Shown: positions 416 to 48,028 of the stretch, in pieces
Layout: each line of letters opens with the position of its first letter
Position numbering within the stretch: position 1 is the stretch's first letter
Source of the DNA: an uncultured Bacteroidales bacterium
GTDB lineage: Bacteria; Bacteroidota; Bacteroidia; Bacteroidales; FEN-979
Direction of reading: 5' to 3'
DNA length: 64,000 nt
Assembly: GCA_903877385.1 (NCBI GenBank)
Contig: CAIRDP010000030.1
Location: 9,974 to 73,973, forward strand
The notes under the pieces: model-generated
Told to the model about the DNA's origin: nothing
The model's input: the letters and a program-made list of their open reading frames with translations, nothing else
The model's database searches: none
Translations under genes and position numbers: made by a program

Positions 416-1915
416 TCACAGTTCCTTTCTCAGCCTTGCCACGGGGATTCTTAGCTGTTTCCTGTATTTGGCAATAGTACGGCGGGCGATATTATATCCC
501 TTTTTCTGAAGTATTTCTTCAAGCTCTTCATCGGTCAGCGGAGCCGATTTATTCTCCCCTTCTATGGTATCGAAAAGTATTTTCTTGATTTCCCTGGAGG
601 AGATCTCTTCGCCCATGGCATTCTGCAGGGATTCCGAAAAGAAACTTTTAAGCAGGAAAGTCCCGAAAGGAGTCTGAACATATTTGGAATTTGCAACTCT
701 TGAAACGGTACTGATATCCAGGCCCACCTTGTTGGAGATGTCTTTTAGGATCATAGGCTTGAGCCTTGTCTCATCACCAGTCTGGAAATACTCTTTCTGA
801 TACTCCAGTATGGCTTTCATGGTCACGTAAAGGGTTTCCTGCCTTTGTTTGATGGCATCGATAAAACCCCTTGCCGAGTCAATTTTCTGTTTTATAAAAG
901 TAAGGGCGGCCTTTTCATTGCTGCTGATCTTCTTTTTCTTGTGATTATATCCCTTCAGCATATCCACGTATTCCCTGTTGATCGAAAGTTCAGGGGCATT
1001 CCTGGAGTTCAGGTTCAGTTCAATCTCTCCGTCGTTGATAGTGATCAGGAAATCAGGCACAATATACTGGCTGCTTCTTGCCTCGTCGGTAATGGTAAAA
1101 CCTGGTTTTGGGTTGAGTTTGGTGATCTCCTCAACAGCTTCCTTCAATTCTTCTTCGGTTATATGGGCTTTCTGGAGAATCTTCTCATAATGCTTTTTCG
1201 AAAATTCATCGAAATAATAACGGATGATCACCTCCGCAAGGTCGGTTGCATAGGTCCTGTCGGTTTTGTACTGAAGCTGCAGGAGAAGGCATTCCTGGAG
1301 TGTCCTGGCTGCAATACCGGGAGGGTCGAACCCCTGGACAAGTTTCAGGGCTTCCAAAACCTCAGCTTCAGTAACTTCTATATTGTGGTTGAAGACAAGA
1401 TCGTTGATGAGTGCAGGAATTTCACGGGCCAGGTACCCTGTTTCGTCGAGATTGCCGATGATAGTGGACGCAATGATGAACTCTTTGTCGGGTATCTTCT
1501 GCACGCCCATCTGGGCTAAAAGGTATTCCTGGGAACTCACTCCCGAAACAACCGGGGATTCCCAGGCTTCCTCATCAGGGCTGCGGTTGTTTGATACCAG
1601 TTTGTAATCGGGAATATCATCCAGGTCAAAGTAATCTTCGAAAGAAAATTCATTATCGGCCTTCAGTTCGGTATGTTCATCCTCCTCCTCCGAGAAACTG
1701 TCCTCATCAGCGTCGATGGATTCAGGAGCGGAATCATCCGAGAGTTCATCCATATCGCTCACATCGAGAGCTTCTTCAAGGGCGGGATTGTCCTCAATTT
1801 CCTGTTTAATCCTTTGCTCAAGCGAAATCACGGGCTGCTGCAACAGGCGCATCACCAGCACCTGTTGGGGAGATAGTTTCTGAAGTAGTTTTTGTTGTTG
1901 TCGTTGATGAAGCAT
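416..1915 (-). CDS. rpoN: RNA polymerase sigma-54 factor
   Basis: N-terminal Gln/Leu-rich region I (MLHQRQQQKLLQKLSPQQVLVMRLLQ), an acidic region II, and a C-terminal RpoN box (ARRTIAKYRKQLRIPVARLRK). The start was moved to the ATG at 1915, which gives the canonical N-terminus. Confidence 0.93.
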   Translation of the reverse strand: MLHQRQQQKLLQKLSPQQVLVMRLLQQPVISLEQRIKQEIEDNPALEEALDVSDMDELSDDSAPESIDADEDSFSEEEDEHTELKADNEFSFEDYFDLDDIPDYKLVSNNRSPDEEAWESPVVSGVSSQEYLLAQMGVQKIPDKEFIIASTIIGNLDETGYLAREIPALINDLVFNHNIEVTEAEVLEALKLVQGFDPPGIAARTLQECLLLQLQYKTDRTYATDLAEVIIRYYFDEFSKKHYEKILQKAHITEEELKEAVEEITKLNPKPGFTITDEARSSQYIVPDFLITINDGEIELNLNSRNAPELSINREYVDMLKGYNHKKKKISSNEKAALTFIKQKIDSARGFIDAIKQRQETLYVTMKAILEYQKEYFQTGDETRLKPMILKDISNKVGLDISTVSRVANSKYVQTPFGTFLLKSFFSESLQNAMGEEISSREIKKILFDTIEGENKSAPLTDEELEEILQKKGYNIARRTIAKYRKQLRIPVARLRKEL

Positions 1916-2069
1916 AAGACAAAAATACAAAAATATTATCCCCTTGTACAGAATGGATGGCTTATCGGCAAATAAACTATAAATATCGACTAATTAGGCG
2001 TCTCCGTCTATTATTCACAATCCCTCACTTTTGATTGCCTAATTTCGCAACCTTGAAATATAAAGTATC

Positions 2070-3101
2070 ATGAACACTGACAAACCATTCTGGGTTACTT
2101 TTCTGATCAACTGCGTGATCTGGGTTTTTCTGTTCTTCATTCCGTTCCTCCTGCTGGAACCCCGGGATGGGATAACCCCTTATCTGCAACGGATGGCAAT
2201 GACCTCAGCGCTTACAATCATACTGTATTATATCAACTACCTGTACCTGATACCAAGATACCTGTTTACTCAAAAATTCCTGGCCTACCTGCTTGTAATA
2301 CTTGGAGCACTCGTAATTTCCTGCATTCTCGTTAACCTGTATTTTTATTTTTATGTTTCCGTAGTCCAGAACTGGCACCACCGCCCCGAGCCGTTATTCG
2401 GCCGGGGCATGTGGGTGCCTTTATTTCCCCTGCTCACGGGTATTGCAATCGGGATCAGCATACGGATGGCAAAAGAGTGGGCGAGAACTGAAAAGGAACG
2501 CCGGGAACTCCAGGGTGAGAAACTGCTTTCGGAACTGGCTTTTCTGAAATCGCAGGTTAACCCCCATTTTCTCTTCAACACCCTGAATAATATCTGTTCC
2601 CTTGCCAGGAAAAAATCGGATGATACCGAACCGGCCATCATCAAGCTTTCACAGATCATGAGATATATGATCACCGATTCAACCCTGGAGAAGGTTGGAC
2701 TGGAGGAAGAAGTTGATTACCTGAATAATTTCATCGAACTTCAAAAAATTCGGCTTGCCGACAGGGTTGAAATCAGTTTTGTCATTGAAGGCGGGCTCTC
2801 GTCCATACAAATTGAACCTTTGCTGCTTATCCCGTTTGTTGAAAATGCATTCAAGCACGGGATCAGTTACAACGGAAAGTCAAGGATAAGCATTGACCTC
2901 AGGACAATGCCGGGTGAGTTATCGTTCACGGTTGAAAACTCCAAACCTCCGTCGAGAGATACCCTGAAACTGGAAGAACCGGGTATCGGGCTTAAAAATG
3001 TGAGCCGCCGTCTCGAATTGCTTTACCCGGGCAGGCATCAGCTTGAGATACGTGATTCAGAATCTGTTTACCATGTCATGTTAAAGATACAAATACAATG
3101 A
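2070..3101 (+). CDS. LytS/YehU-type sensor histidine kinase (membrane bound)
   Basis: Hydrophobic N-terminal half, then the His_kinase signature LKSQVNPHFLFNTLNNI and an HATPase-like C-terminus (GIGLKNVSRRLELLYPG). The stop overlaps the downstream response regulator by 4 nt. Confidence 0.85.
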   Translation: MNTDKPFWVTFLINCVIWVFLFFIPFLLLEPRDGITPYLQRMAMTSALTIILYYINYLYLIPRYLFTQKFLAYLLVILGALVISCILVNLYFYFYVSVVQNWHHRPEPLFGRGMWVPLFPLLTGIAIGISIRMAKEWARTEKERRELQGEKLLSELAFLKSQVNPHFLFNTLNNICSLARKKSDDTEPAIIKLSQIMRYMITDSTLEKVGLEEEVDYLNNFIELQKIRLADRVEISFVIEGGLSSIQIEPLLLIPFVENAFKHGISYNGKSRISIDLRTMPGELSFTVENSKPPSRDTLKLEEPGIGLKNVSRRLELLYPGRHQLEIRDSESVYHVMLKIQIQ

Positions 3102-3820
3102 TACGCTGTATAGCAATTGACGATGAGGCCCTTGCACTGGAACTGCTTGAGGATAATATCAGCAAGATACCCTTTCTTGAGCTCTCAGGGAAATTCACAA
3201 ATGCTTTTGATGCGCTTAATCTGATGCAGGAGCAACCTGTTGACCTGCTTTTTCTGGATATCCAGATGCCCGATATCAGCGGTATTCAGTTCCTGAAGAG
3301 CCTTCAGCAAAAACCTGTGGTTATCTTCACGACAGCTTTCTCGAAATACGCGCTTGAAGGATTTGAACTGGATGTGATCGATTATCTCTTAAAGCCGTAT
3401 TCATTTGAGCGCTTTCTGAAATCGGTCAACAAAGCCCATGAGTATCTCGAACTCCAGGGAAAAGCGAAAGATGCACCAAAAGGTCCGACCTTCGGCTCCC
3501 ATTATCTTTTTGTAAGAGCCGATTACAAGCTGGTCAAGATAGCGATCCAGGAGATCCTGTACATCGAAGGGCTTAAAGATTATGTGAAGATCTACTGCGG
3601 GGAAAAGCCCATATTGACCCAGATGAGTATGAAAGCGATAGAGGAAAAGTTGCCCGCCCAGGATTTTATCAGGGTTCACCGCTCTTTTATTGTCGCCTTT
3701 GACAAGATAGATTTCATTCACAAGAGTTTTATCTCGATAAAAGGGAGGGAGATACCATTGAGTGATCATTATAAAGACAACTTTCTTTCTCTTGTTCAGA
3801 AGAACAAGATCATGGAGTAG
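3098..3820 (+). CDS. LytTR-family response regulator
   Basis: Receiver domain (IAIDDE...DLLFLDIQMPDISG...LLKP) followed by a LytTR DNA-binding C-terminus (IRVHRSFIV). Confidence 0.88.
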   Translation: MIRCIAIDDEALALELLEDNISKIPFLELSGKFTNAFDALNLMQEQPVDLLFLDIQMPDISGIQFLKSLQQKPVVIFTTAFSKYALEGFELDVIDYLLKPYSFERFLKSVNKAHEYLELQGKAKDAPKGPTFGSHYLFVRADYKLVKIAIQEILYIEGLKDYVKIYCGEKPILTQMSMKAIEEKLPAQDFIRVHRSFIVAFDKIDFIHKSFISIKGREIPLSDHYKDNFLSLVQKNKIME

Positions 3821-3839
3821 AAGATTAACAAATCATATT

Positions 3840-5183
3840 ATGAAGCGAACTATTTTAATACTAAGTGTTCTGGTTTATTACTCATTTGGGGGATGGGCGC
3901 AAAAAGCGCCATGGACATTCCAGCAGTGTCTCGACACCGCTTTAAAACGTAATATTTCGGTCAACCAGACCATACTTGCAAATGAGCTTAACAAGATAAG
4001 CCTGGAGCAATCCAAAGCCAACCGAATTCCCAGCGTAAGCGCCAGTGTTGGTGAGACGTATAATATAGGAAAAAACGTTGATGCAACAACCAACCAGTTT
4101 GTTATAGGCACATTCCATTCGGGGAACTACGGATTGAATGCCAGTTACAACCTGTTCAACGGATTACAGAACAATAACACAATCAAACAGTACAAGCTGA
4201 ATATTGAAGCCGGCAAATTCAATATCGAAAATGCAAAGAACGCGGTCATCCTCAGTGTTACAACCGGTTACCTTCAGATTTTGCTTGAATACGAGATCCT
4301 GAAAACAACCCAGAACCAGCTGTCGGCCGATTCAATCCAGGTCGACAGGACCCAGAAACAGCTAAACGTTGGAAAGGCTGCCGAAGGCGATTTGCTGCTG
4401 ATCAAGTCACAGCTGGCCACGGATTACCTTTCGTATGTAAATGCCCAGACTCAGCTGGACCTTGGAAGGGTGACCCTGATGCAGCTTATGCAGATCCCGG
4501 TAATTGATAATTTTGATGTGGAGGTCCCGAAATTTGCAGAGCCGGGGCTTGATTTGCTTCTTAGCCAGGACGTGATATACCAGAAAGCCCTGGCCGTCAT
4601 GCCACAGATCCAGGCTGCATCCCTTAATACGTCAAGTTCAAAGATGGCAATAAAGGTAGCGACAGGGGCCAGGTGGCCAAGGCTAACCTTTTCGGGTGGA
4701 CTCAGTTCAAACTATGCCTCCAGCCGTAAACAGGGTACAGCGGTCAACCCCGAGAATTACCCTTGGTATTCACAGGTTTGGGATAACGTAGGACAAGCAT
4801 TAAACCTTGGTTTAAGCATCCCGATTTACAGCAACCGCTCACTGCAAAGCGGGATTGAACGGGCAATAATCAATTCAAAAACTGCTGCCCTCAATGAGCT
4901 CAATACCCAGCAAACGCTGAGGATGAATATTGAACAAACCTATACCAGCCTTAAGGCGGCTGCCAAGTCCTATGAGGCAGGCAAAGTTCAGTTGAGTTCA
5001 ACGGAGATGTCATACCTGAATGCCGAAAAGAAATACAATGTAGGGGTTATGAGCACAACGGATTACCTGATCCAGAAAAACAGCTACATATCATCCTTAT
5101 CTAGCCTGATACAGACAAAATTTAATTTCATTTTTCAGTCTAAGATCCTTGATTTTTACCAGGGTAAAGCTATTACATTTTAA
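3840..5183 (+). CDS. TolC-family outer membrane efflux protein
   Basis: Signal peptide MKRTILILSVLVYYSFGGWAQ, then the typical OMF opening (FQQCLDTALKRNISVNQ) and two repeated coiled halves. The start is set at the internal ATG 3840, because the track ORF start at 3762 overlaps the response regulator. Confidence 0.85.
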   Translation: MKRTILILSVLVYYSFGGWAQKAPWTFQQCLDTALKRNISVNQTILANELNKISLEQSKANRIPSVSASVGETYNIGKNVDATTNQFVIGTFHSGNYGLNASYNLFNGLQNNNTIKQYKLNIEAGKFNIENAKNAVILSVTTGYLQILLEYEILKTTQNQLSADSIQVDRTQKQLNVGKAAEGDLLLIKSQLATDYLSYVNAQTQLDLGRVTLMQLMQIPVIDNFDVEVPKFAEPGLDLLLSQDVIYQKALAVMPQIQAASLNTSSSKMAIKVATGARWPRLTFSGGLSSNYASSRKQGTAVNPENYPWYSQVWDNVGQALNLGLSIPIYSNRSLQSGIERAIINSKTAALNELNTQQTLRMNIEQTYTSLKAAAKSYEAGKVQLSSTEMSYLNAEKKYNVGVMSTTDYLIQKNSYISSLSSLIQTKFNFIFQSKILDFYQGKAITF

Positions 5184-8749: not shown

Positions 8750-9508
8750 TCACTTTCTCCCCGTCAGATCAAGTATCCCGTTGATGAAAGTGAGGGGATG
8801 GGGCGGATTGCCCGGTACGTAAAGGTCGGGCCTGATACGTTCAATGAATTTCCGGTCCAGAGCTGCACTGTCATTAAATATCCCGCTGCTGATTGCAGCC
8901 GTCCCTGCGAGGATTACAATTTTGGGGGAAGGTGTTGCGTCGTAGCAGATCTGCAGGGCTTCGGCCATATTCCCGCTCATAGGACCGCTTATAACCAGCC
9001 CGTCGGCATGCCGGGGAGATGCAACGAATTCTATACCGTAACGCCCCATATCAAAGTTTACATTGCCACAGGCATTGAGTTCCATTTCGGCCGAATTGTC
9101 GCCTCCGGCCGAGACCTGGCGCAGCTTAAGGGCATTATGAAAAAATGACCTGATCTCTTTCCCGGCAGATCCCTGCTCAACAACAACAGGCCTGTCCTCA
9201 CCTGCTTTAACAATAAGGCCTTGCCTGGAATTGCTTGCAATACGGTAGTCGGCGGTAAAGCGGATCTTCCCGGGCAGGGCGAAACTGCATTCCATACAGA
9301 ATTCGCATTTCCCCAAATCAAGCCTGAAAGGGCCGCTTTCGATGGCGCCCGTGGGGCAAAGAGCTTCGGCGATTTTTTCTTCAGCCTGGCTGATATCCCC
9401 GCTGATCACAGGCCGGCCGCGGAATCCCTCAGGCAGCGCTGCCTTTCGCAGGTCCTTGACGTATTGCCGGCCGTGGCGGCGAAAAATGCTTATGATACCT
9501 AGAGCCAT
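8750..9508 (-). CDS. NuoB/HycG-like small subunit fused to a degenerate ferredoxin domain; proximal Fe-S ligands absent
   Basis: The fold markers SPRHADGLVISGP and VPGNPPHP align with HycG SPRHADILLFTG and IPGCPP. The Cys positions read VSAGGDNSAEME (vs VDCGGCNGCEIE), GTAAISSGIF (vs GACGNSGGIF) and PGNPP (vs PGCPP). The N-terminus carries CPTGAI ... CEFCMEC. Confidence 0.8.
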   Translation of the reverse strand: MALGIISIFRRHGRQYVKDLRKAALPEGFRGRPVISGDISQAEEKIAEALCPTGAIESGPFRLDLGKCEFCMECSFALPGKIRFTADYRIASNSRQGLIVKAGEDRPVVVEQGSAGKEIRSFFHNALKLRQVSAGGDNSAEMELNACGNVNFDMGRYGIEFVASPRHADGLVISGPMSGNMAEALQICYDATPSPKIVILAGTAAISSGIFNDSAALDRKFIERIRPDLYVPGNPPHPLTFINGILDLTGRK

Positions 9509-9520
9509 ATATTCCCTTTT

Positions 9521-11062
9521 TTACAGATCAAATCCACAATATGATAAACTATAGCTCTTGTTGCATAACGGGAAATCGGATATCTCCTGGTTCCTTACCG
9601 CCAGGGCCAAAGCCATCCAGTTATGAAAGGAAGGGTCTTTTACTTTATAATGAATGATGTTCCCTTTCTCGTCTGTGACTGCGGATTGCATGATCTCTCC
9701 CCTCCATCCCTCGGCCATGGACAAGGCAAAACTTGATGTATGAATGCTGTGATCATAAACTGGTTTGCCGGGGGCCGGGTCAGGGCCATGCCTCTCGAGC
9801 AAGTCCCTGATAATACGGATTGATTTTTCAACTTCAATTTTTCTCAGCATGGCCCTTGCCCATACGTCACCCTGGTGGAGCGTTACCGGTTCATAAGCGT
9901 AATTATTAAAAGCCTGGAAGGGATGTGACCATCGGATATCGCGTTTTACACCGCTGCTTCTCGATGCCATGCCAACGGCCCCGATCATTCCTGCCTGGCG
10001 GGCGCTCAGCTTGCCGATGCCTTCGAAACGGCTGAGGACACTTGGGTTTGTGAATATCTCCTGGCTGATCTGCCCGTATCTTTCTTCAACATCCTTAAGG
10101 TTTGAAAGCAGGGTTTTAACAAATCCATCCTTTAAGGGATAATGGCACCCGCCCGTCCTTACAATTCCTTTGCCAAATCGGTTCCCGCACCATAACTGGG
10201 TTGTATTGATAACGACGGTCCTCAGGGCTTCATTCACCACCTGCCCGAACTGGTATGCTATGTCGGTGCAGAGGGCAGCCGAGTCGCCGATATGCACTGC
10301 TATCCTTTCAAGCTCGAGAGCAATCACACGTTCAGCCTGGAGGGCGGGCGACGGCATTGTTCCCGTAATGACTTCCATAAGCTGGACATGGGCTATTGAA
10401 TGGCCAACGGCCGTATCCCCGGCAATACTCTCGGCAAGTATGGCACGCTGAATACTGGTTAGCTTTTCAAGAAAAAGCTTCTCAATACCCCTGTGCTGAA
10501 AACCAAGCTGTATTTCAAGGTGAAGCACTTTTTCACCCTTGCAAATAAACCTGAAATACCCGGGTTCTATGATCCCTGCATGGATCGGGCCTACACCGAC
10601 CTCGTGGACGCCTTCGCCTTCAATGGAGAAGAAAGAATAGGGATGCATCCCGCATCCCGCATCCTGCATCCTTTGCTCTTCATCCCGCTTATGCGAACGT
10701 AAGGGTTTCATCCATGGATGCCCTGTGAATTCCACTCCGTACTGCTCAGATATTTCGCGTTCAAACATGTGAAATGAAGGAATGGAAGGAGTGAGTGAGT
10801 CAAGAACAGGGGAGGGAGAGGCTTTCTGCTCATGAGAAAGCAGGATCAATGAATGCTCATGGTCTGAAGCGATGCAGCAGAAAAACCTGAGATCTGCACC
10901 CATAGGGACCGCGTGATAGGTAACGCAGTGACATCCCTCATCCACCATCATCTCATTCACCTTATCCATAAATAAAGGATAAGCCAATACAGGAATGTCA
11001 CCAAGGGGAACAACGAATGGATTTGAATTCACCACGACCATACCATCACGCTCTCCATTCAT
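9521..11062 (-). CDS. NuoC+NuoD / HycE-like large subunit lacking Ni-Fe cysteine ligands
   Basis: GPIHAGIIEPGYFRF and GFQHRGIEKL are typical of group-4 hydrogenase/NuoD large subunits. The L1 motif reads ESIAGDTAVGH (expected RxCGxCxxxH). The C-terminus reads DFPLCNKSYSLSYCGFDL (expected DPCxxCxxR). Confidence 0.8.
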   Translation of the reverse strand: MNGERDGMVVVNSNPFVVPLGDIPVLAYPLFMDKVNEMMVDEGCHCVTYHAVPMGADLRFFCCIASDHEHSLILLSHEQKASPSPVLDSLTPSIPSFHMFEREISEQYGVEFTGHPWMKPLRSHKRDEEQRMQDAGCGMHPYSFFSIEGEGVHEVGVGPIHAGIIEPGYFRFICKGEKVLHLEIQLGFQHRGIEKLFLEKLTSIQRAILAESIAGDTAVGHSIAHVQLMEVITGTMPSPALQAERVIALELERIAVHIGDSAALCTDIAYQFGQVVNEALRTVVINTTQLWCGNRFGKGIVRTGGCHYPLKDGFVKTLLSNLKDVEERYGQISQEIFTNPSVLSRFEGIGKLSARQAGMIGAVGMASRSSGVKRDIRWSHPFQAFNNYAYEPVTLHQGDVWARAMLRKIEVEKSIRIIRDLLERHGPDPAPGKPVYDHSIHTSSFALSMAEGWRGEIMQSAVTDEKGNIIHYKVKDPSFHNWMALALAVRNQEISDFPLCNKSYSLSYCGFDL

Positions 11063-12498
11063 TTCGGCAGATTTTGAATAATATCCATGATCATATCCCT
11101 TAAAAATCCGGGCTGTGTAAAGCAGATCACGATCACAAGCCCGAACAGTATGTACTGTGAAACGGTTTGCCAGGGGTTTACTTTTTCACCCGGCCTCACA
11201 CTGGCTGTCCTGGGCTGGGAAAAAACTATGTGAAGCACCCTGGTAAGCATGGCATAAAGCACAAAGCACAGCAGGATGGCGGCAACCGTCATGTAAAGGT
11301 AGTTCCCATTAGCGACCATGGCTTTGAACATCAGCAGTTCCGAGATGAACATACCCGAAGGGGGGATGGCGGTGATGCAGAGCAGCCCCAGCAGCAGGGC
11401 TGTGGCGCCTGCCGGGTAAAGGTTCATGTAATTGCCAGATTCATCCAGGTTATAGGTCCCCATGACCTTGTACGACTGCCCCATCTGGTAAAAAAGCCCG
11501 GCTTTGGCAAAAGAATGAAGTATCACATGCAGTATGGCTGCATAATACCCTATTCCGCCCATTCCAAGAGCTATTGCAACAATCCCCATGTTCTCGAGGC
11601 TGGAATAAGCCAGCATCCGTTTGTTGTGCTTGGCTTTAAGCATATAGCCTGCCGAGATCAGAATCGACAGGAAACCCGAGAGCAGCAGCACATGGTTCAT
11701 AAACGGCAGTATGGGAGTGGCCGAGAAAAGCGCATAAATGCGGAAAATGGCAAGGAACCCCACGTTCATCAGGGTTGTCGAGATAAAAGCGCTGATGGGG
11801 GGAGGGGCCACGGTATGCGCGTCCACGGTCACCGTATGCATGGGAAAGAGTCCCATTTTGGTACTGTAACCTACCAGTACGAATACGAATGCGATCTTCA
11901 GGTAAAGCGGGTTTGCAAGGCGGGCAATCTCGGTAATTGAAGAAAATGAAAGATGGAGAAGGCGTACGTCCCTTACAGTGAACCCCAGGAACAGTATGCC
12001 GATATAGGCCAGGGCGATCCCGATCGAACAAACAAAGACATATTTCCAGGTGGCTTCCAGGGCGATGGCCGTGCGGTCGTGATAGATCAGTGCTGCAACG
12101 GCAAGGGTGGTGGCTTCCACGAAGATCCAGACCGTGGTCATCCCGTTGGCCAGGTAAGCGCCCGTCATTGCGGCAATAAGGGCGATGAGGGCTGAGTGGT
12201 AAATTGCGTAAATCCTGGGAGGGTCATTACGAACATAAATGAAACCGTGGTAAACCGTGGTAATGCTGAGGATCGACAGCACCGATTGCAGCATCAGCCC
12301 GAGGGTGTCGAAGGTGAAATAATCCAGCACCGTTTCGCCCCGGTGCATCCAGCAGTATGCTGTAAAGGCTACGTGAATTACCACATAGGATGAGGTAAGC
12401 AGCCTTGCCAGCGGCTTCGAATGTATCAATGCCACCAGCAGGCCCAGCAGGAGTGAGAGGGCGAAAAAGAGGATGAATATGTGGGCCGGCTCAATCAT
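11059..12498 (-). CDS. antiporter-like membrane subunit (NuoN/NuoM / HyfF-like)
   Basis: About 14 predicted TM helices and the Proton_antipo_M-type core (KMGLFPMHTVTVDAHTVAPPPISAFIS, SSLENMG). Translationally coupled to its neighbours. Confidence 0.8.
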   Translation of the reverse strand: MIEPAHIFILFFALSLLLGLLVALIHSKPLARLLTSSYVVIHVAFTAYCWMHRGETVLDYFTFDTLGLMLQSVLSILSITTVYHGFIYVRNDPPRIYAIYHSALIALIAAMTGAYLANGMTTVWIFVEATTLAVAALIYHDRTAIALEATWKYVFVCSIGIALAYIGILFLGFTVRDVRLLHLSFSSITEIARLANPLYLKIAFVFVLVGYSTKMGLFPMHTVTVDAHTVAPPPISAFISTTLMNVGFLAIFRIYALFSATPILPFMNHVLLLSGFLSILISAGYMLKAKHNKRMLAYSSLENMGIVAIALGMGGIGYYAAILHVILHSFAKAGLFYQMGQSYKVMGTYNLDESGNYMNLYPAGATALLLGLLCITAIPPSGMFISELLMFKAMVANGNYLYMTVAAILLCFVLYAMLTRVLHIVFSQPRTASVRPGEKVNPWQTVSQYILFGLVIVICFTQPGFLRDMIMDIIQNLPK

Positions 12499-13108
12499 CT
12501 TTCAGTATCGTTAAGTCATCGGTTTGCTGCCTGAGGCGCATCACGAATATTCCCAGTATAAGCACGCTCACAAAGATATCCAGCAGTATCCCTATATTGA
12601 TCAGCATGGGGATCTCGCTCCCGATGGCCAGTGAAAGTAAAAGAACGGCGTTTTCAATAACCAGGAAACCGACGAGATGAGAGAAGATTTTCCTGTGCGA
12701 AATGATCATGAACAAGCCTGTATACACGGCAAAAAAAGAAACAATAAAGAACAGCAGGTTATAAGGGGTGGTGTTCATCGAAAAGGAAACCACTATGCTG
12801 AGCAGGAAGCCCAGGCTCACGAAAAGCAGGGAATAGAATGAAGGCAGGGCTTTATCATGGACGCGGGCTACGCCTGTCCTGCGGATGACGGTAAACAGCA
12901 GGTATGGTACAACGATAACTTTGAACAACAGGGTTTCAATAGCAACAAACAGGACTGTGGCAAGTGTGATCCTGTCGAGTTGCAGGAAAGATAAGCCGAA
13001 CAGCAGCAGCCCCTGCAGTCCCACAAGCCCCGCATAGATACTGAACCTCTCGGTAACGCTGAGGTAGATCAGGGTGATGGCAAACACTATGATGAGCATT
13101 GATGTCAT
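12491..13108 (-). CDS. small membrane subunit (HyfE / NuoK-like)
   Basis: 205 aa and entirely hydrophobic. Both position and size match HyfE of hydrogenase-4-type operons. Confidence 0.65.
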   Translation of the reverse strand: MTSMLIIVFAITLIYLSVTERFSIYAGLVGLQGLLLFGLSFLQLDRITLATVLFVAIETLLFKVIVVPYLLFTVIRRTGVARVHDKALPSFYSLLFVSLGFLLSIVVSFSMNTTPYNLLFFIVSFFAVYTGLFMIISHRKIFSHLVGFLVIENAVLLLSLAIGSEIPMLINIGILLDIFVSVLILGIFVMRLRQQTDDLTILKDD

Positions 13109-13109
13109 G

Positions 13110-14024
13110 TCAGCGGATGAGGTTGCGGGTTAATAACAGTACGAGGATGAATGCGATGAGGGCAACCGAACTGAGGGTAACGATGAACTGGGGGTTTTTG
13201 GCCAGTTTCTTCCTTGCGCGGAAGGATTCCATTAGCCCGATAGCAGCAGCAAACCCTGCCTGTACGAGGAGGAACAGCAGCACATTCGTGCCCAGCCATC
13301 CGCCCTTAACAGGTAAGATCAGGTTCGCGATAAGCCCTCCGTAAAGCACGAATTTTAGGTTTGTCCCGGTTTGGATGAGGGCAAGGTCCACCCCGCTGTA
13401 ATCGAGTATCATCACTTCGTGGACCATGGTTAGTTCGAGATGGGTCCTGGGGTCGTCTACAGGCATGCGGCTGTTTTCTATCATGGCGATCTGCAGCAGA
13501 AGGTAGGTTGCGATGGCCCCGGTGATGAGTGAAAATTCGCCTGCAAACTGGAAATGTGAAAAGATATCCTGCATCGAAAGATGGCCCGACAGCAGGGCAA
13601 GGGTTCCGAAGAGGATGAAAAAGGCAGGTTCGGTGAACATGGAATACAGGGCTTCGCGGTTGGCTCCCATGCCTTCAAAGCTGCTGCCGGTATCCATAGC
13701 GCCCAGGATGAACATGAGTTTTCCAAGGGCGAGCAGGTATGCAAAAAGAATGAAATCACCTTCAAAACCCAGTATCGACGGCATGCCCGGGAAGGGGAGG
13801 AGCATAAGAGCGCAAAGGACCGTGGCCAGGTAAACTGCAGGCGCAAGTCTGAAAATGAAGCTTGTTGTTGTGCTGAATACGCTGCTTTTCCTGAAAAGCA
13901 GGAGGATGTTCTTCCAGGCTTGAAGTATTCCCGGGCCTTTACGGCCACCGGCGATGCTTTTCACCCTGAGGATGATCCCCGGGAAAAAGATTGCGGATAC
14001 TATGGCCAGCAGGGCTCCTGTCAT
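13110..14024 (-). CDS. NuoH / HycD-like membrane subunit
   Basis: 304 aa and polytopic, with a NuoH-like motif (FAGEFSLITGAIATYLLLQIAMIENSRMPVDDPRTHLELTMVHEVMILDYSG). Confidence 0.78.
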   Translation of the reverse strand: MTGALLAIVSAIFFPGIILRVKSIAGGRKGPGILQAWKNILLLFRKSSVFSTTTSFIFRLAPAVYLATVLCALMLLPFPGMPSILGFEGDFILFAYLLALGKLMFILGAMDTGSSFEGMGANREALYSMFTEPAFFILFGTLALLSGHLSMQDIFSHFQFAGEFSLITGAIATYLLLQIAMIENSRMPVDDPRTHLELTMVHEVMILDYSGVDLALIQTGTNLKFVLYGGLIANLILPVKGGWLGTNVLLFLLVQAGFAAAIGLMESFRARKKLAKNPQFIVTLSSVALIAFILVLLLTRNLIR

Positions 14025-16045
14025 ATGAGTTTAAGGTATAGCAGTGCAAAGATCAAAAGGATGAAAATAAAAGCATACAATACGTAATGCCTGATATTGC
14101 CGGTTTGCAGCCTGGCCAGTTTTTTCAGTACATACCAGCTGAGATCGGTTAATTTTCCAATGCCCCTGCCAAAGATATCCGAAGTATGCTGATGCAGCGA
14201 GCGGGTACGGGGGAAGATGTCTTCGTTAGAAATGGTCCTGAATTCCTCTCGGTCCCTGAGCACAGGCTGGGCCAGTTCGGCGAGGTTTTCGGCAAACGAA
14301 GTCCCGGTGTATTGCTGCCTGGAAGTTGCGTGGGTATAGCCGCATCCCCAGGTTGGGCCATATTCGGGTTTCCTGTTTTTCAGCAGCAGTGTCCTTATGT
14401 AAAGTATAAGGGTCACAATTGAAATCAGGATGAGGCCGAAAAGGCTGATCCTGTTCAGGGAGGTTCCGTAGAAAACCCCTGAGGAAATCGGGCCCAGGCG
14501 GAAACGGGTTTCGACCAGGCTTGCAATGGGCGAAATCGCAGCCAGCGGCATCAGGCCGATGCCAAGAATCATAAATGCGATCAGAAGCTGGGGAAAGATC
14601 ATATCCCTTGTGATGGCCGAGGCTTGAATAGGAATGACTTTACGGGGAGTTCCGAGGAAGCTTATCCCGAAGGCCCGTGAAAAACTGAAGATTGCAAGCC
14701 CCCCGATCAGGGTCAGTGTGAGAATGACCACTAGGAACACTATGGAAAGGTATTCATTCCCGGCGCCCAATCCTTTGAAGAACCCTGTGTACAAAAGGAA
14801 CTCCGAAATAAATCCGTTCAGGGGGGGGAGAGCGCAGATGGCCGAGGAGCCAAGGAGAAACAAGCCTGCAGTGCGCGGAAGCGAGTGAACCAGCCCACCC
14901 AGTTCCTCGATGTTCCTGGTATGGGTTGCCCTGTAAACCGATCCGGAGGCATAAAAAAGAAGGGATTTGAACAGTGAATGGTTGAGCACATGCAGCAGGC
15001 TGCCGGTGAAGCCGAGGACTGCGAGCACGGGCTTGTGCAGGGCCAGGCCTATGCATCCAAGGCCCATTCCAAGGCCTATGATGCCGATGTTTTCGATGGT
15101 CGAGTAGGCAAGTATCTTTTTCAGGTCGGTCTGTACTATTGAAAATAAAATGCCGAGTAATCCTGTGAAGGCTGAGATGATGAGAATGACCAGCCCGATG
15201 GTGTACCAGTCGGACTGTACCGAAACAAGTACCCTGAATATCCCGTAAATACCCATTTTGATCATCACCCCCGACATAACTCCCGAAACATGGGATGGTG
15301 CGGCAGGATGGGCTTCGGGTAACCAGGTGTGAAACGGAATGAAGCCTGCCTTTACTGCAAACCCGGCAAAGAACAGCAGGAAAAGGCCGGTATTTGAATG
15401 ATTTGCAAAGTATGCAGGCAGGGCGTCAAAGCTCATCACCCCTGTACCGGCTTCGGTAAGAAGGAAAGCAAACAGTAGCAGCACAAAACCGATATGCATC
15501 TGTATAAGGTAATTGACGGCTGTTTTAAGGGTGGCCCGCTTTTCCGCTTCAAACAAGATCAGCATAAAGGATGAAACGGCCATCAGTTCCCAGGCGATAA
15601 GAAATGAAAGCCCGTCGCGGATTGTGAGCACGGCAAGCATGGAAAAGTGAAGCCAGGTATAACTGAAGTTATGCAAGGCAAGCTGGGCCGGGTTCTTGGT
15701 TTTGGCGTAGGCTTTGAGATAGCCCCTGGAGTAAAGAATTCCCGTAAGCACTGTAAAATTGGTCACCAGGATGAAAAATGCGCTCAGGGGGTCGAGGGTG
15801 AAACGGAGTTCCCCAAGGTATCCCCTGAAAACCCAGTTTGTTGAAGTCATGACTTCCCGTATCGGCGATACGGGTATGGCTGAGGCATCGGCAAGGGGAG
15901 AAAAAAACTGGAAGAATGCAGGGACAGAGGTTACCAGGATTACGAACAGGACCAGTGAAAGGGTATAGTAATAGCGTAACCTCCCGGGAACCACCAGGAT
16001 GAGAAATGAACCTAAAACCGCTGCAGGAATGAAAATCTGCTCCAT
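14021..16045 (-). CDS. antiporter-like membrane subunit (NuoL / HycC / HyfB-like)
   Basis: 674 aa and polytopic, with a Proton_antipo_M core (KAGFIPFHTWLPEAHPAAPSHVSGVMSGVMIKMGIYG, YSTIENIG). It is the first gene of the minus-strand operon. Confidence 0.82.
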   Translation of the reverse strand: MEQIFIPAAVLGSFLILVVPGRLRYYYTLSLVLFVILVTSVPAFFQFFSPLADASAIPVSPIREVMTSTNWVFRGYLGELRFTLDPLSAFFILVTNFTVLTGILYSRGYLKAYAKTKNPAQLALHNFSYTWLHFSMLAVLTIRDGLSFLIAWELMAVSSFMLILFEAEKRATLKTAVNYLIQMHIGFVLLLFAFLLTEAGTGVMSFDALPAYFANHSNTGLFLLFFAGFAVKAGFIPFHTWLPEAHPAAPSHVSGVMSGVMIKMGIYGIFRVLVSVQSDWYTIGLVILIISAFTGLLGILFSIVQTDLKKILAYSTIENIGIIGLGMGLGCIGLALHKPVLAVLGFTGSLLHVLNHSLFKSLLFYASGSVYRATHTRNIEELGGLVHSLPRTAGLFLLGSSAICALPPLNGFISEFLLYTGFFKGLGAGNEYLSIVFLVVILTLTLIGGLAIFSFSRAFGISFLGTPRKVIPIQASAITRDMIFPQLLIAFMILGIGLMPLAAISPIASLVETRFRLGPISSGVFYGTSLNRISLFGLILISIVTLILYIRTLLLKNRKPEYGPTWGCGYTHATSRQQYTGTSFAENLAELAQPVLRDREEFRTISNEDIFPRTRSLHQHTSDIFGRGIGKLTDLSWYVLKKLARLQTGNIRHYVLYAFIFILLIFALLYLKLI

Positions 16046-20891: not shown

Positions 20892-23800
20892 ATGTCGATA
20901 ACCGAATTAGCGATAAAACGCCCGTCTTTCATTATCGTGATCTTTCTGGCCTTAGGGATGCTGGCTATTTTCGGGTATTTCCAGCTGGGGTATGAATTAC
21001 TGCCCAAGATCGATCAGCCTTATGTTACGGTAAAAACCCTGTATCCGGGGGCATCCCCCGGTGAAGTGGAGAACAATGTAACCCGGGTGATAGAGGATGC
21101 CCTTTCGGGTATAGAAAAAGTGAAAAACATAAGCTCAACTTCTTATGAAGGACTTTCGCTCATTGGCATAGAATTTTACAGGAATGCTACGATTAACATA
21201 GCCGTTCAGGATGTTCAGCGGAAGGTGAACGAGATCATCTCAACCCTGCCCAAAGAGGTGAAAACCCCTTCGCTGCTCACTTACTCGGTGAGCCAGATCC
21301 CTGTCCTCAGGCTTTCTCTTACTTCCAATCTTTCCCCGGCCAGGTTTTACACCCTGGTCGACGACCAGATCAAACCCAGGCTGTCGAGGGTACAGGGTGT
21401 CGGGAATATCACCATTAACGGCGGACTGAAACGGGAGATCAAGGTGAACATCGACGCCCAGAAGGTCAGGTCGTACGGACTTTCGATAAGCCAGGTGGCT
21501 AACTCAATCAATGCAGCCAACCTCGATTTTCCTACCGGCAAGCTTAAAGACCCCCTGCGGCAGTTCGTGGTAAGGGTAGCCGGGAAATTCACTTCCCTTG
21601 AAGAAATGAACAACCTGGTGGTCGGATATTCCAAAGAGGGAGGGGAGATCCGCCTTCGCGACATTGCCGAGATCCATGATGCAACCATTGATGCCACCCT
21701 CATCAGCAGGTTCAGCGGGATCAATGCACTTGGCCTGGAAATCCAGAAGCAGAACGACGCCAATATGGTGAAAGTCTGCGAGAACGTTCGCAGGGAATTG
21801 AAAGTGCTGGAAGCCGATTACAAGGGCATGAACCTTCATTTCGACATTGCCGACGACCAGAGCGTTTTCACTATGGCGGCAGCCCATGCAGTAATGGAAG
21901 ACCTGGTCCTTGCAATTATTCTTGTAGCTGCAGTGATGTTTCTTTTCCTGCATTCGGTGCGTACGGCGCTTATCGTCATGGTATCCATCCCATGTTCCCT
22001 TACCACTGCATTCGTGGTCATGTGGGTTGCCGGGATGTCTTTAAACCTTTTCACATTATTGGCCTTGTCGCTTGTGATCGGGATACTGGTCGACGACAGC
22101 ATCGTCGTTCTTGAGAACATCTACCATCATCTTGAAAAAGGAGAAGACAGGCTCACTGCATCCGTTAAAGGACGTACTGAGATCGGTTTTGCTGCAGTCT
22201 CAATTACATTTGTCGACATCGTGGTGTTTGTTCCCCTCGCCCTCACTACTGGACTCATAGGTGACATCATCCGCGGGTTTTCGATTATCATCCTTGTCTC
22301 AACCCTTACCAGCCTGATGGTTTCATTTACAGTAACACCCATCCTGGCATCGCGTTTTGCAAAACTCGAATCCATAGCTTCCGACAGCCTTCTTAACAGG
22401 TTTGGGAAGTTCTTTGAGCAGGGTTTCCGCTGGCTTACCGCGAAGTATGCAGCTATTCTCGGATGGAGCCTCAGGAATCCCTACCGGGTGTTATTTGTCG
22501 TCGCATCGGGCCTGGTGATAACGCTGATGATCCCTGCAGCCGGACTTATTGGTTTTGAATTCATGAAACAGACTGACCGCAGCCAGTTTTCGGTGGCTCT
22601 TGAATATGCTCCAGGAACAACCCTGGAAAGCAACAACCGGCAGACAAGGAAGATAGAAGAACTGATCACGACCCTGCCCGAGGTTACGAATATCCTGACC
22701 AACGTGGGTAAGGGAAGCGACGGGGTAAGCACCGACAACCAGACCGAGATCGTGGTTTCGCTATGTGACAAGAATAAGCGCAGCTTAACCACAGCCGAAC
22801 TGGGTTCCAGGGTCAAGGACCTTACCGCGAAAATCCCCGGGGTGAAAGTGTTTATAAACCAGATCGGTTTTGCAGGAGGGGCCAGCTCGGCTCCCGTGCA
22901 GGTGGAGATTACCGGCATCAATTATGATTCCATCATGAAGTCGGCCGACCTGGCTGCAAAAACCCTTATACTGACTCCCGGCGTTACTTACCTGAGATTT
23001 TCGGCAAGCAGGGGAAATCCTGAAACCCGGGTCGAGATCGACCGTCAGAAGATGGCAGCCCTAGGCCTGAGCGTGAGTGACGTAGGCTCGGCCCTGCAGG
23101 TTGCGCTCACCGGGAATAACGACTCGAAATACCGGGATGGCTCGAACCAGTTCGACATACGGGTTGCCCTGGATAAGTTTGACCGGACCAACCCCGACGA
23201 TATCTCTCATCTTTCGTTTATCAACAGTAAAAACAGGATCATCGAACTTCAGCAGTTTGCCAGCATCTACCAGTCCTCGGGACCAACTAAGCTGGAGCGC
23301 AAGAACCGTAATGCGCTTACCACGGTAAGCGCTTATACCGACGGATCTCCTGCGGGTTCCATTGTACAGGCATTTGCTGCAAGGCTTGGCAACAGCAAGG
23401 CAGGAGGAACCGTGATAGGGTTCGGAGGGGACCAGGAGGAGATGCTTACTTCCTTCCTCAGTCTCTTCATCGCACTTATAGCAGCCGTCATCTTTGTTTA
23501 CTTCATCATGGTGATACTGTACGATTCATTCGTGTATCCCCTGGTCGTGCTGTTTTCCATCCCGGTAGCCCTCATAGGGGCTATCCTTGCCCTGGCATTC
23601 ACACATAATACCATCAATGTGTTCTCTATTTTAGGCATTATCATGATGGTAGGCCTTGTTGCCAAGAATGCCATCCTTATCGTGGACCGAACGAACGAGA
23701 AAAGGGCTGAAGGAGAATCCATTTACGACGCACTTATTGATGCAGGTAAAATGCGTATACGCCCTATTTTCATGACCACCCTGGCGATGGTGTTCGGGAT

Positions 23801-27443: not shown

Positions 27444-28259
27444 TTATCTGCCGGGCTTACCTTTTTGTATAGGGTAATTGGCTGTCAATACCTCGATTTT
27501 ATTTGATCTGACTGCCTTCTTTGAGGCACATAAAGGCATTTTAAAAGCCAGCTGGGACCAGCCATGCTTCTTGGCATATTGAGTGATAATGTCCTGAGGG
27601 TAATTGCTTAATAAAAACTTTCCTTTGATGTTTGATAGCCTTATCAAGAGCTGCTCAAGGTTGTCCATCGTATAACCCTTGTAATGGCCCAAATTGGTCC
27701 CAGGATAAGGTGGGTCGATATAATGAAAGGTATCCGGTGTATCATATAGCCTGATTACGTCAAGGGCGTCACGGCACTCTATTTGCGTTAATTCAATACG
27801 CTCCTGAAGCTGATCAGTAAACTGCCTTTTTTTATTCATAACTTTCCTTGCAATACTGGATTTGCTTTTATCAAACCCCCAGGATCCTGAGAGCTGACTT
27901 CCGAAGGATTGAGTGGATAATACCCATAAGGCCCATGCCCTGGTTACCGGATCGTGGAGTATTGGCTGCTGATAAATCTCCCATGCCTGCTTATGAGTCT
28001 TACGACTGTGCAATGTGATTTTAACGACTTTTTGAAGGGCTTTAAATTGTGTTTTAAGAACAACGTAAAAGTTGATCAGCTCATCATTCATGTCATTGAT
28101 CACTTCAACCTTTGAAGGGGCCTTTAACCAGTAAATGGCGGCACCTCCACAGAAGGGTTCACAATAAACAGTGTGTTTGGGAATTAAAGGCAGAATATGC
28201 CTCGACATTTGTTGTTTGCCCCCATAGTAAGAAATGGGGGTCTTAATAGTGTCAATCAT
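27444..28259 (-). CDS. dam: DNA adenine methyltransferase (Dam / D12 class N6-MTase)
   Basis: YYGGKQQ...YCEPFCGGAAIY (AdoMet motif I) and IDPPYPGT (catalytic DPPY motif IV). It is the last gene before the prophage end. Confidence 0.88.
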   Translation of the reverse strand: MIDTIKTPISYYGGKQQMSRHILPLIPKHTVYCEPFCGGAAIYWLKAPSKVEVINDMNDELINFYVVLKTQFKALQKVVKITLHSRKTHKQAWEIYQQPILHDPVTRAWALWVLSTQSFGSQLSGSWGFDKSKSSIARKVMNKKRQFTDQLQERIELTQIECRDALDVIRLYDTPDTFHYIDPPYPGTNLGHYKGYTMDNLEQLLIRLSNIKGKFLLSNYPQDIITQYAKKHGWSQLAFKMPLCASKKAVRSNKIEVLTANYPIQKGKPGR

Positions 28260-36265: not shown

Positions 36266-36820
36266 TTATGCTAAGGGTTTAACGTCTTCTTTCAGCAAAT
36301 CAAACAGATCATCGGACAGGGCGGAGATGGTAAAGCGCTGATTCGCCTCTCCTTTGGTAAAAGGAATATCCCAGGATACAATCGTGATCCGGGTAATATC
36401 ATAGATCTTCAGCAGGTCACATTCTACATCCAGGGCCTCGGTGGCTTCACAGAACTCTCTCAGTTTTCTTACATCTTCTTCAGGATATACATTCGCATCT
36501 TTGAGGTTGATCAGCACACCTTCAATCGTTACCTGGTAATCATCCTGAGTCCAGCGTTCTTTGATCGTGCCGCGCCCCTTTCCCTTTGAAACAGTCCGTT
36601 TTGCAATTACATTCCCTCCCGAAATGCTCACCAGGGGTTCCACCGGCACCGTCCATGACTCTTTCTCATGGAAGGCCAACTTCAGAGGCATCACCATTGC
36701 AAAGCCATTGCCGTTACTTGGCTTGTCGGTAGTGGCACCATCAGATGAAGCAAGCAATGTCACATCCGCGCTATTGCCTTCATTGAGATTGATCCGTACC
36801 TGGTTAATGATGAATTCCAT
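36266..36820 (-). CDS. hypothetical tail protein (slot of the Mu DNA-circularisation/gp43-like protein)
   Basis: 184-aa ORF whose start codon overlaps the tape-measure stop codon by one base (36820). Position-based call only. Confidence 0.4.
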   Translation of the reverse strand: MEFIINQVRINLNEGNSADVTLLASSDGATTDKPSNGNGFAMVMPLKLAFHEKESWTVPVEPLVSISGGNVIAKRTVSKGKGRGTIKERWTQDDYQVTIEGVLINLKDANVYPEEDVRKLREFCEATEALDVECDLLKIYDITRITIVSWDIPFTKGEANQRFTISALSDDLFDLLKEDVKPLA

Positions 36821-47529: not shown

Positions 47530-48015
47530 ATGTTCCTTACCAAAGCAGAACTTAAATCGGTGATCTATGAATATCAGCTCAACGATATCGTAGAAATTAC
47601 CACCGGAAGTACCACCAACGAGGATATCGTGGTGATGGCCATTGATGCCGCTGTGGAAGAGATGAAGTCCTATCTCAACCCGAACAACCAGGGCCACTGG
47701 ATCGATGGCCGTAACCGCTATAATACCGCGGTGATCTTTGCGGCCACCGGCACCGCCCGTAATCCCCTGATCCTGGAATTCGCCAAGAGCATCGCACTGT
47801 ATTACATCTGCCGCCTGTCGAACGTGGACATCATCGAGGAGAAAGTTAAGGCACGGTACGACCGGGCCATTGACTGGCTCGAGAAGGTTGCCGGTATCGG
47901 AAAGTATGCCGATGGTCCCGCGATCACACCCAATCTGCCACTACTCACCCTGGAGGACACTCCGGAAAACGTTCCCTTCCGCTTTGGATCCAGGGACAAG
48001 TTCAACCACGAATAA
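47530..48015 (+). CDS. Mu gp36-like head-tail connector protein (DUF1320-like)
   Basis: 161 aa opening with MFLTKAELKSVIYEYQLNDIVE, and ARYDRAIDWLEKVA near the C-terminus. Family assignment is from memory of DUF1320 proteins. Confidence 0.5.
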   Translation: MFLTKAELKSVIYEYQLNDIVEITTGSTTNEDIVVMAIDAAVEEMKSYLNPNNQGHWIDGRNRYNTAVIFAATGTARNPLILEFAKSIALYYICRLSNVDIIEEKVKARYDRAIDWLEKVAGIGKYADGPAITPNLPLLTLEDTPENVPFRFGSRDKFNHE

Positions 48016-48028
48016 ACACTTTAGAACA

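Follow-up and report, generated by a model that had tools for sequence, protein, structure and literature searches.

The stretch of DNA analysed here, a 64-kb window from an uncultured Bacteroidales bacterium, carries on its minus strand, at positions 8750-16045, a six-gene operon encoding a membrane-bound relative of complex I. Judged from the motifs of its predicted subunits, the complex is very probably of the energy-converting-hydrogenase-related (Ehr) type and should not be a hydrogenase. Comparison of the proteins shows descent from the scaffold of the group-4 membrane-bound [NiFe] hydrogenases, but the large subunit has lost its Ni-Fe ligands, without which the complex should be unable to make or oxidise H2, and the small subunit has lost the proximal [4Fe-4S] cluster, so that no iron-sulfur relay would lead to the former active site. 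Taken as a whole, the observations are best explained by an Ehr-type complex working as an ion translocator, an explanation that we favour slightly.

Ehr complexes have been named in papers from 2012 onwards, which credit their first identification to Geobacter, and their definition includes a large subunit devoid of Ni/Fe-binding cysteines (PMC6349859, PMC3569383, PMC10284858). In HydDB they count as homologues of hydrogenases without H2 metabolism (PMC5037454), and they have been placed next to the group 4f [NiFe] hydrogenases (PMC10284858). In Geobacter sulfurreducens, EhrA-D/L/S (GSU0739-45) comprise NuoL-like, NuoH-like, HyfE-like, NuoN-like, large, and small subunits (PMC7894505), and the six-gene cluster Desru_3260-3265 has the same composition (PMC3569383). 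The operon studied here is another member of this known, functionally uncharacterised family, and shares with Geobacter Ehr the six kinds of subunit, a large subunit without the CxxC Ni-Fe ligands, and an unknown function; its membership is assigned from architecture and motif state rather than from sequence comparison with Geobacter EhrL and EhrS. A preliminary description of this DNA had already called the complex Ehr-type and the function of such complexes unknown. The subunit set and the missing Ni-Fe cysteines indeed fit the published definition, and the function is still given as undetermined in PMC6349859 and in papers from 2019-2023 (PMC6728331, PMC10284858, PMC10432482).

The large subunit is clearly related to HycE, both in sequence (phmmer against 7z0s_E, E=6.7e-35) and in fold: in a Foldseek search with an AlphaFold monomer model (~100 homologues; predicted local distance difference test score, pLDDT, 85), HycE was the best match with a template modelling (TM) score of 0.82, and E. 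coli NuoCD reached TM 0.76-0.80. Where the RxCGxCxxxH motif would be expected, the preliminary description had read ESIAGDTAVGH, and this segment (residues 211-221) does stand column for column opposite sdRvCGiCgfaH of HycE and eRmCGiCsfsH of MbhL, with Ala214 and Thr217 in the columns of the first-motif cysteines. At the C-terminus, NKSYSLSYCGFDL lies opposite the NKSFELCYSCTDL/R or ...CDR ends of the nearest ligand-bearing relatives, which puts Ser507 and Gly510 at the second-motif cysteine columns and a lone cysteine, Cys509, between them. The alignment register is fixed by conserved flanks (Glu211, Gly215, His221, Asn501-Lys-Ser503, Leu506, Tyr508, and Asp512), and the earlier statement that both cysteine pairs are missing or displaced holds for all four ligand columns. 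As the protein stops three residues past the second ligand position, it has no C-terminal extension for a maturation protease.

The replaced positions are themselves conserved. Among 77 relatives from the Bacteroidota clade, in which the ligand columns likewise hold no cysteine ligands, Gly215 is present in 77/77, Asp216 in 76/77, Thr217 in 69/77, and His221 in 69/77, and the C-terminal cysteines Cys500 and Cys509 in 72/77 and 75/77, respectively. The consensus of this clade reads E-[S/N]-I-A-G-D-T-x-V-G-H for the first motif and L-C-N-K-S-F-N-L-S-Y-C-G-x-D-L for the C-terminus; Cys174, Cys292, and Cys265 are further conserved cysteines of the subunit. We also looked for the quinone ligands of NuoD by alignment to Nqo4: Gly215 stands at the position of Tyr87, and the column of His38 is occupied by Ile165, with no histidine evident in this low-confidence stretch. 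Indeed, two pocket-forming loops of the monomer model, residues 159-165 and 508-513, are predicted with low confidence.

The small subunit has likewise kept its fold and lost its usual ligands. Its sequence matches MbhJ (2e-20) and HycG (7.5e-16) among solved structures, and alignment with MbhJ places Asp137, Ala140, Ala204, and Asn234 in the four cysteine columns of the proximal cluster, in line with the loss claimed in the preliminary description. In a set of 110 relatives, Asp137 and Asn234 never vary, 75 have Asp at position 204, and no more than 12 have Cys at position 140, a residue present there in 34/73 of the relatives from the GTDB loci described below. Residues 138-150 have pLDDT values below 50 in the AlphaFold model (monomer, ~100 homologues, pLDDT 84 overall). 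Beside the lost first cluster motif lies Cys147 (window 9068-9070), for which most relatives have Ala (family consensus ELNAAGNVNFD); judged from these alignments, it appears to be a lineage-specific residue and not a replacement ligand. The identical small-subunit protein occurs on 43 public contigs.

Fused in front of the NuoB-like part is a domain of ~120 residues, for which a profile search against the PDB found E. coli NuoI (1.2e-7), HycF (1.7e-5), and MbhN (4.6e-4). Its kinship with NuoI and HycF follows from this search, since Foldseek, which matched the subunit model to NuoB, PSST, HycG, and MbhJ, reported the NuoB half only. NuoI, HycF, and MbhN carry two CxxCxxCxxxCP motifs. Of the first, the CxxCxxC is lost and the Cys-Pro (Cys51) kept; of the second, the CxxCxxC (Cys68-x2-Cys71-x2-Cys74) is kept and the Cys-Pro has become Leu-Pro. 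In two-cluster ferredoxins, the Cys-Pro of one motif and the CxxCxxC of the other together bind exactly one cluster, and we take the surviving [4Fe-4S] cluster to be of the N6b type, the neighbor of N2 in the Thermus complex I structure. All four cysteines are invariant in both sets of relatives (73/73 and 110/110), and the ferredoxin-type domain is modelled at pLDDT 93-97. The preliminary description had stated that the operon has no electron-input subunit. This holds only in part, because the one-cluster NuoI/HycF-like domain at the front of the small subunit does provide the operon with a module of the electron-input type. As predicted from the sequences, the peripheral arm is made of a NuoC-NuoD fusion and a NuoI'-NuoB' fusion carrying a single iron-sulfur cluster. 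In the accessible literature, which leaves out the primary Ehr papers, we found no description of this single-cluster fusion or of the Asp216 signature, and we claim no novelty for either.

The six genes are intact, closely packed open reading frames (ORFs), whose positions are collected in Table 1. Their junctions measure -4, +1, -8, -4, and +12 nt in operon order, so the overlaps of 4-8 nt noted earlier exist at three of the five junctions, the other two being gaps of 1 and 12 nt. The top NCBIfam models are, in gene order, HyfB, NuoH, HyfE, HyfF, NuoD, and NuoB, but all scores fall far below the curated cut-offs, and hence no curated equivalog family claims any of the six proteins. The best sequence matches of solved structure are HycC, HycD, HycE, and HycG of E. 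coli formate hydrogenlyase (FHL) and MbhH, MbhM, MbhL, and MbhJ of Pyrococcus. Since domain hits, PDB matches, and the AlphaFold superpositions by Foldseek agree, the gene order and folds of a group-4 complex that the preliminary description had assigned to the operon are correct.

Table 1. The six genes of the Ehr-type operon and the diagnostic regions of its large and small subunits (window positions).
Feature	Position (nt)	Strand	Basis
EhrA-type antiporter-like subunit (HyfB/HycC/NuoL-like), 674 aa	14021-16045	-	Pfam Proton_antipo_M 1.6e-53
EhrB-type NuoH/HycD-like membrane anchor, 304 aa	13110-14024	-	Pfam NADHdh 5e-27
EhrC-type HyfE-like membrane subunit, 205 aa	12491-13108	-	NCBIfam HyfE 1e-11 (below cut-off)
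EhrD-type antiporter-like subunit (HyfF/NuoN-like), 479 aa	11059-12498	-	Pfam Proton_antipo_M 1.2e-39
EhrL-type large subunit, NuoC + NuoD/HycE fusion, 513 aa	9521-11062	-	Pfam Complex1_30kDa (aa 55-121) + Complex1_49kDa
First Ni-Fe motif remnant, E211-S-I-A214-G-D216-T217-A-V-G-H221, replacing RxCGxCxxxH	10400-10432	-	Aligned to HycE, MbhL, Nqo4
Second Ni-Fe motif remnant, L-C500-N-K-S-Y-S-L-S507-Y-C509-G510-F-D-L-stop	9524-9568	-	Aligned to ligand-bearing relatives
EhrS-type small subunit, NuoI/HycF-like remnant + NuoB/HycG-like fusion, 252 aa	8750-9508	-	Pfam Oxidored_q6 aa 141-247
NuoI/HycF-like ferredoxin-type domain, aa 19-101, single [4Fe-4S] motif	9206-9454	-	Profile search vs PDB
NuoB/HycG-like domain, aa 125-249, without proximal-cluster ligands	8762-9136	-	MbhJ alignment

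From these sequences, the membrane arm looks competent for ion translocation, as it keeps the charged residues associated with that function. The HyfB-like subunit (NCBIfam HyfB, 506 bits against a cut-off of 667) matches HycC (7z0s_C, 4e-55) and MbhH in the PDB, as well as the Mrp antiporter structures 6z16_A, 7qru_A/D, and 7d3u_A. Its family-invariant residues Glu153, Lys232, Lys263, His352/His356/Lys360, and Glu415 presumably correspond, going by the HycC and MbhH alignments, to the positions in transmembrane helices TM5, TM7, TM8, TM11, and TM12 of complex I. The second antiporter-like subunit (NCBIfam HyfF, 222 bits, below cut-off) has invariant Glu128, Lys214, His328/Lys332, and Glu387; at the central lysine position, for which its paralogue has Lys263, it carries Asn245. 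The NuoH-like subunit matches HycD (7z0s_D, 4e-20) and MbhM (6e-18), and keeps the loop motifs DTGSxFxxxGAxRE and IExxxxPxD...EL...E....YSG common to both; Glu117, Glu124, Glu132, Glu183, Asp190, Glu197, and Glu203 are invariant. The HyfE-like subunit, which gave no Pfam match and no PDB relative by sequence, has the invariant membrane glutamates Glu58 and Glu152.

In order to place the operon among its relatives, we scanned one genome per GTDB species, which gave relatives encoded at no fewer than 569 loci, and analysed the best 80; a protein search, too, returned at least 8000 candidates. These 80 come nearly all from Bacteroidales or other Bacteroidota metagenome-assembled genomes from stratified lakes, sediments, and digesters, the closest ones from Lake Pavin and Swedish lake data sets. 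The six genes are colinear in 59/80 loci, and most of the remainder are cut by contig ends. Against four relatives, the ratio of nonsynonymous to synonymous substitutions (dN/dS) is 0.02-0.15 for all six genes and lowest (0.02-0.045) for the HyfE-like gene, figures that are rough because dS is ~1 or more. Invariant positions still make up 17-26% when relatives of as little as 48% identity are included. Among 401 gene copies aligned over >90% of their length there is a single internal stop, two other flags being natural stops; the preliminary description had judged the operon functional, and the colinearity, dN/dS, and reading-frame data bear this out. The internal stop, in the HyfF-like gene of L039 (8560-9969), follows directly upon the His...Lys motif (LHSLAK*) and reflects either an error in sequencing or true inactivation of the gene. 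In the more distant Bacteroidales operons L074-L080, ~2 kb of additional DNA, possibly encoding a third antiporter-like subunit, lies between the HyfB-like and NuoH-like genes, and insertions of 1.2-4.5 kb precede the HyfF-like gene in two other loci (L017:3985-8532 and L019:7310-8532).

Within 10 kb, no partner gene regularly travels with the operon. When flanking ORFs within 10 kb on each side were clustered for the 80 loci and the window, the six genes were the only families present in more than 15 loci, and the surroundings of the operon in the 80 genomes show no conserved gene for a dehydrogenase, a ferredoxin, or a NuoEF-like protein. In the window it is flanked by MacAB-type efflux genes on one side and by a protein sorted by the type IX secretion system on the other; where relatives share such neighbors (MacAB efflux), this reflects close kinship only. 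A Pfam search of the 56 larger ORFs of the window likewise returned no hyp, maturation protease, formate dehydrogenase, or nuo gene, extending to these ORFs what had been said of the operon about the first three. The stops of the convergent MacB-like gene (8741) and the small-subunit gene (8750) are only 8 nt apart. No sigma-54 motif was seen on reading the 120-nt spacer upstream of the operon, and promoter and terminator scans gave nothing reliable, the sigma-70 model used being ill-suited to Bacteroidota.

The same replacements recur in distant relatives. An exhaustive search of 1.84 billion cluster representatives with the large subunit gave 540 proteins below 1e-30, and of 116 full-length representatives (33-51% identity), 103 carry [A/S]-G-D-[S/T] and S-Y-[C/S/A]-G and only five have true cysteine motifs. 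These five (P0323, P0325, P0349, P0365, and P0371; 33-37% identity to the large subunit) are the nearest ligand-bearing relatives. At 59 positions the 103 distant Ehr-type representatives are at least 90% conserved, and 55 of these positions are common to the five. The four exceptions are Ser507 and Gly510 (Cys in the ligand-bearing relatives), Pro477, and Asp216, which is 92% conserved in the 103 and Ala or Val in the five; by this comparison of 59 positions with five sequences, Asp216 is the one conserved gain of the Ehr-type family. In the wider family no cysteine is conserved to 90%: Ser or Ala frequently stands in for Cys509, and the position of Cys500 is taken by Ile, Val, or Asn. A neighbor-joining tree with fragments of MbhL and HycE as outgroups unites the five ligand-bearing sequences in one clade inside the Ehr-type sequences, a hint only, as the tree has no support values and its outgroups are fragmentary.

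Loss of the Ni-Fe site and loss of the proximal cluster do not always coincide. The large subunit of locus L084 (826-3258) has all four Ni-Fe cysteines (ERICGVCAVSH ... CYSCCDR-stop), and the small subunit downstream combines the same one-cluster ferredoxin remnant with a NuoB domain whose proximal-cluster positions read Asp, Ala, Asp..Cys, Asp; if real, this would be a Ni-Fe site without its usual electron relay. Two other Ehr-type operons differ from that of the window, whose small subunit is fused to the one-cluster domain and has no proximal cluster. In the distant operon L085, the small subunit is short and has the full set of four cluster cysteines; that of L087, 181 aa long, contains not one cysteine and lacks the ferredoxin domain. 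The 120 homologues closest to the L087 small subunit include 99 with the CCCC set, 12, each standing for a cluster, that read S/T-E-N-N and are free of cysteine, and six with non-cysteine sets of other kinds. The superfamily thus includes conserved lineages whose small subunit has no redox cofactor that can be recognised. In L087 (1371-17677), the small-subunit gene comes first, and a CBS-domain protein, a CitMHS/ArsB-type transporter, and an F-type ATP synthase operon follow.

Among characterised systems, E. coli FHL and hydrogenase-4 (Hyc and Hyf; group 4a; 7Z0S) provide the best solved matches for four subunits, and the gene order corresponds to hyfB-C-E-F-G-I without A, D, and H. Unlike them, the operon lacks the Ni-Fe ligands and the proximal cluster, its HycF/HyfH counterpart is reduced to one cluster and fused, and no HycB/HyfA, FdhF, hyp, or hycI gene lies nearby. 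Of the features of group-4 [NiFe] hydrogenases, it has large, small, NuoH-like, and antiporter-like homologues in one operon, but neither the four Ni-Fe cysteines (RxCGxCxxxH and [DE][PL]CxxCxx[RH/L]) nor the proximal cluster. The ligand-bearing relatives share the protein end right after the second motif and, in L084, the small-subunit architecture, but have kept CGxC and CxxC. With complex I (NDH-1), the operon has in common homologous modules, an E. coli-type NuoCD fusion, the antiporter residues, and the NuoH loop motifs; it differs in having no N2 cluster or N2 ligands, no quinone Tyr/His, and no NuoA, J, K, M, E, F, or G, in having one NuoI-domain cluster instead of two, and in its six genes as opposed to eleven to fourteen. 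Mrp antiporters, built of seven subunits (MrpA-G), have antiporter-like subunits of the same MrpA/MrpD type, but no NuoH-, NuoB-, NuoC-, or NuoD-like subunits, and the operon has no MrpE, F, or G, so it is not a member of that family. Finally, MbhL, MbhJ, MbhM, MbhH, and MbhN, from the ferredoxin-dependent complex-I-like pumps MBH and MBS (Mbx) of Pyrococcus, are all significant matches. In MBS the Ni-Fe site is lost and yet function is kept; MBH and MBS retain the full three-cluster chain, whereas the complex described here has one cluster only.

How might such a complex work? In the model we propose, the former Ni-Fe pocket would have been rebuilt rather than abandoned, with Asp216 and Ser/Thr hydroxyls at the metal positions and Asp/Asn at those of the proximal cluster. 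This pocket might still communicate with the coupling loop of the NuoH-like subunit and, by taking up protons or binding cations, provide the loading or gating site, so that the complex would act as a cation or proton translocator in the manner of an Mrp antiporter, the lone cluster having either a structural role or that of a redox gate. A distal cluster of complex I or FHL reaches the active site only via the proximal cluster; with the latter missing, the surviving cluster would be too far from the pocket for electron transfer, and it is for this reason that we favour ion translocation. The lack of a conserved partner gene, the intact membrane residues, the rebuilt pocket, and the cysteine-free relatives point the same way. 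That the machine is redox-independent or merely redox-gated is a possibility which, going by sequence, we hold at less than even chances. Somewhat more tentative is the idea that the Q-module of the complex I superfamily has been re-used as an ion-loading or gating device, in which a pocket of carboxylate and hydroxyl groups (Asp216, Ser/Thr, and Ser507) would have taken the place of the Ni-Fe centre, and Asp/Asn that of the proximal cluster, the cysteine-free relatives representing the end point of this trend.

Several points weigh against ion translocation without electron transfer. The invariance of the four cluster cysteines is what would be expected if electron transfer still mattered, and the distance argument relies on the geometry of complex I and FHL rather than on a model of this complex. 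Mrp works without a peripheral arm, and simple antiport would leave the strict conservation of the arm unexplained. Ion transport by Ehr is a prediction, as would be any other activity, and a partner might be encoded outside the 64-kb window. Moreover, Geobacter Ehr subunits are more abundant on formate (PMC7894505), and a redox complex of formate dehydrogenase and Ehr has been proposed (PMC6349859). These last points would suit a redox-driven ion pump, in which a ferredoxin or a dissociable dehydrogenase, for example a formate dehydrogenase, feeds the single [4Fe-4S] cluster. Such a pump is possible but rather doubtful; its putative acceptor could be menaquinone, a sulfur compound, or another small molecule at the interface of the large, small, and NuoH-like subunits, its reduction driving ions as in MBH, MBS, FHL, and NDH-1. 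In addition to the invariant cysteines (110/110), it would account for the NuoI/HycF-like nature of the domain, the module that links to HycB/FdhF in FHL, for the retained second-shell residues of hydrogenase type, and for the presence of all four proximal-cluster cysteines in some Ehr relatives (L085 and 99/120 homologues of L087). It has to contend with the proximal ligands of the family being Asp/Ala/Asp/Asn, by which the relay to the pocket is broken, with the missing quinone ligands of NuoD (Gly215 at Tyr87 of Nqo4 and no His evident at His38), with the lack of any conserved dehydrogenase, ferredoxin, or NuoEF-like gene beside the operon in 80 genomes, and with the existence of cysteine-free relatives. 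In Methylocystis, a related six-gene 'group 4f' cluster is induced 16- to 23-fold by acid stress, and formate dehydrogenases are co-induced with it (bioRxiv 10.1101/2025.08.29.672306); the acid induction is circumstantial and fits either reading, and the co-induction speaks for the redox-driven pump.

Other explanations fare less well. The strong conservation in Bacteroidota of Asp216 (76/77), His221 (69/77), Cys500 (72/77), and Cys509 (75/77), along with that of Cys174, Cys292, and Cys265, could mean that the Bacteroidales branch binds a new metal or cofactor, for example Zn or Fe, and couples non-redox chemistry to the ion gradient. Complex-I-type modules do power non-redox chemistry, and the energy-coupled, carbonic-anhydrase-type chemistry of CupA or DabAB offers an analogy. 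Since Cys500 and Cys509 vary in the wider Ehr family, where no cysteine reaches 90%, and the monomer model predicts residues 508-513 with low confidence, we consider this improbable. Far less probable still are two readings that the data contradict. With Cys509 between the C-terminal ligand positions and Cys500 nine residues upstream, the complex might be a true [NiFe] hydrogenase whose cysteines a hand alignment had put out of register, a check that the preliminary description itself had called for; the statistical alignments to HycE, MbhL, and the ligand-bearing relatives, however, fix Ala214, Thr217, Ser507, and Gly510 as genuine replacements within conserved flanks, and the proximal cluster is gone too. 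Equally hard to credit is a decaying remnant with pseudogenes in the making. The lost cofactor ligands and the in-frame stop in the HyfF-like gene of L039 would fit it, but the six ORFs are intact, the loci colinear (59/80), dN/dS low (0.02-0.15), and 17-26% of positions invariant, and the replaced ligand positions are conserved in their turn.

The current annotation of such proteins as 'Ni,Fe-hydrogenase III' or 'NADH-quinone oxidoreductase subunit C' is misleading, and metabolic reconstructions may therefore wrongly credit their carriers with H2 production or with an extra complex I. This concerns many genomes, as the Bacteroidales branch abounds in genomes from anoxic freshwater, sediments, and digesters, with matches in at least 569 species-level genomes, and Ehr complexes are widespread with no function assigned. 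To the specialist, another Ehr operon will come as no surprise; it is the conserved substitutions and the cofactor-free relatives that sharpen a testable hypothesis. The conserved replaced ligands, the exactly one surviving cluster, and the cysteine-free relatives provide concrete, mutable targets, and are relevant to the question of how complex I's coupling machinery can run when its customary chemistry is missing.

Elsewhere in the window, a ~34-kb insert with low-GC ends (27300-61350; genes ~27444-59622) contains a Mu-like prophage. Its genes include a tape-measure-like gene (36820-38778), a DUF2586 sheath-like gene (40168-41364), a holin, a GH108 endolysin, Portal_Mu (47870-49195), Mu F, DUF3164, a MuB-like AAA protein (56669-57538), a 682-aa putative transposase, and a weak, sub-threshold match to GemA. 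Next to these are the genes of a Dam-type methylase (27444-28259) and of a 999-aa protein (28323-31322) that has no Pfam match. A single host gene seems to be interrupted by the insert, whose two sides carry, on one and the same strand, the end of an AAA_14 ORF (27297) and the start of an ORF that matches DUF4143 weakly and below threshold (61351). Ahead of the MacAB-type efflux genes that adjoin the operon, positions 416-5183 hold rpoN (sigma-54), a LytTR-type two-component pair, and a TolC-like gene. On the plus strand, a 1812-aa ORF (20892-26330) combines a complete AcrB-type resistance-nodulation-division pump (aa 4-1013), an ABC_sub_bind-like region, and two outer-membrane-factor (OEP) repeats (aa 1377-1556); it would be an unusual fusion of inner-membrane pump and outer-membrane channel, or else the product of a missed stop or frameshift.

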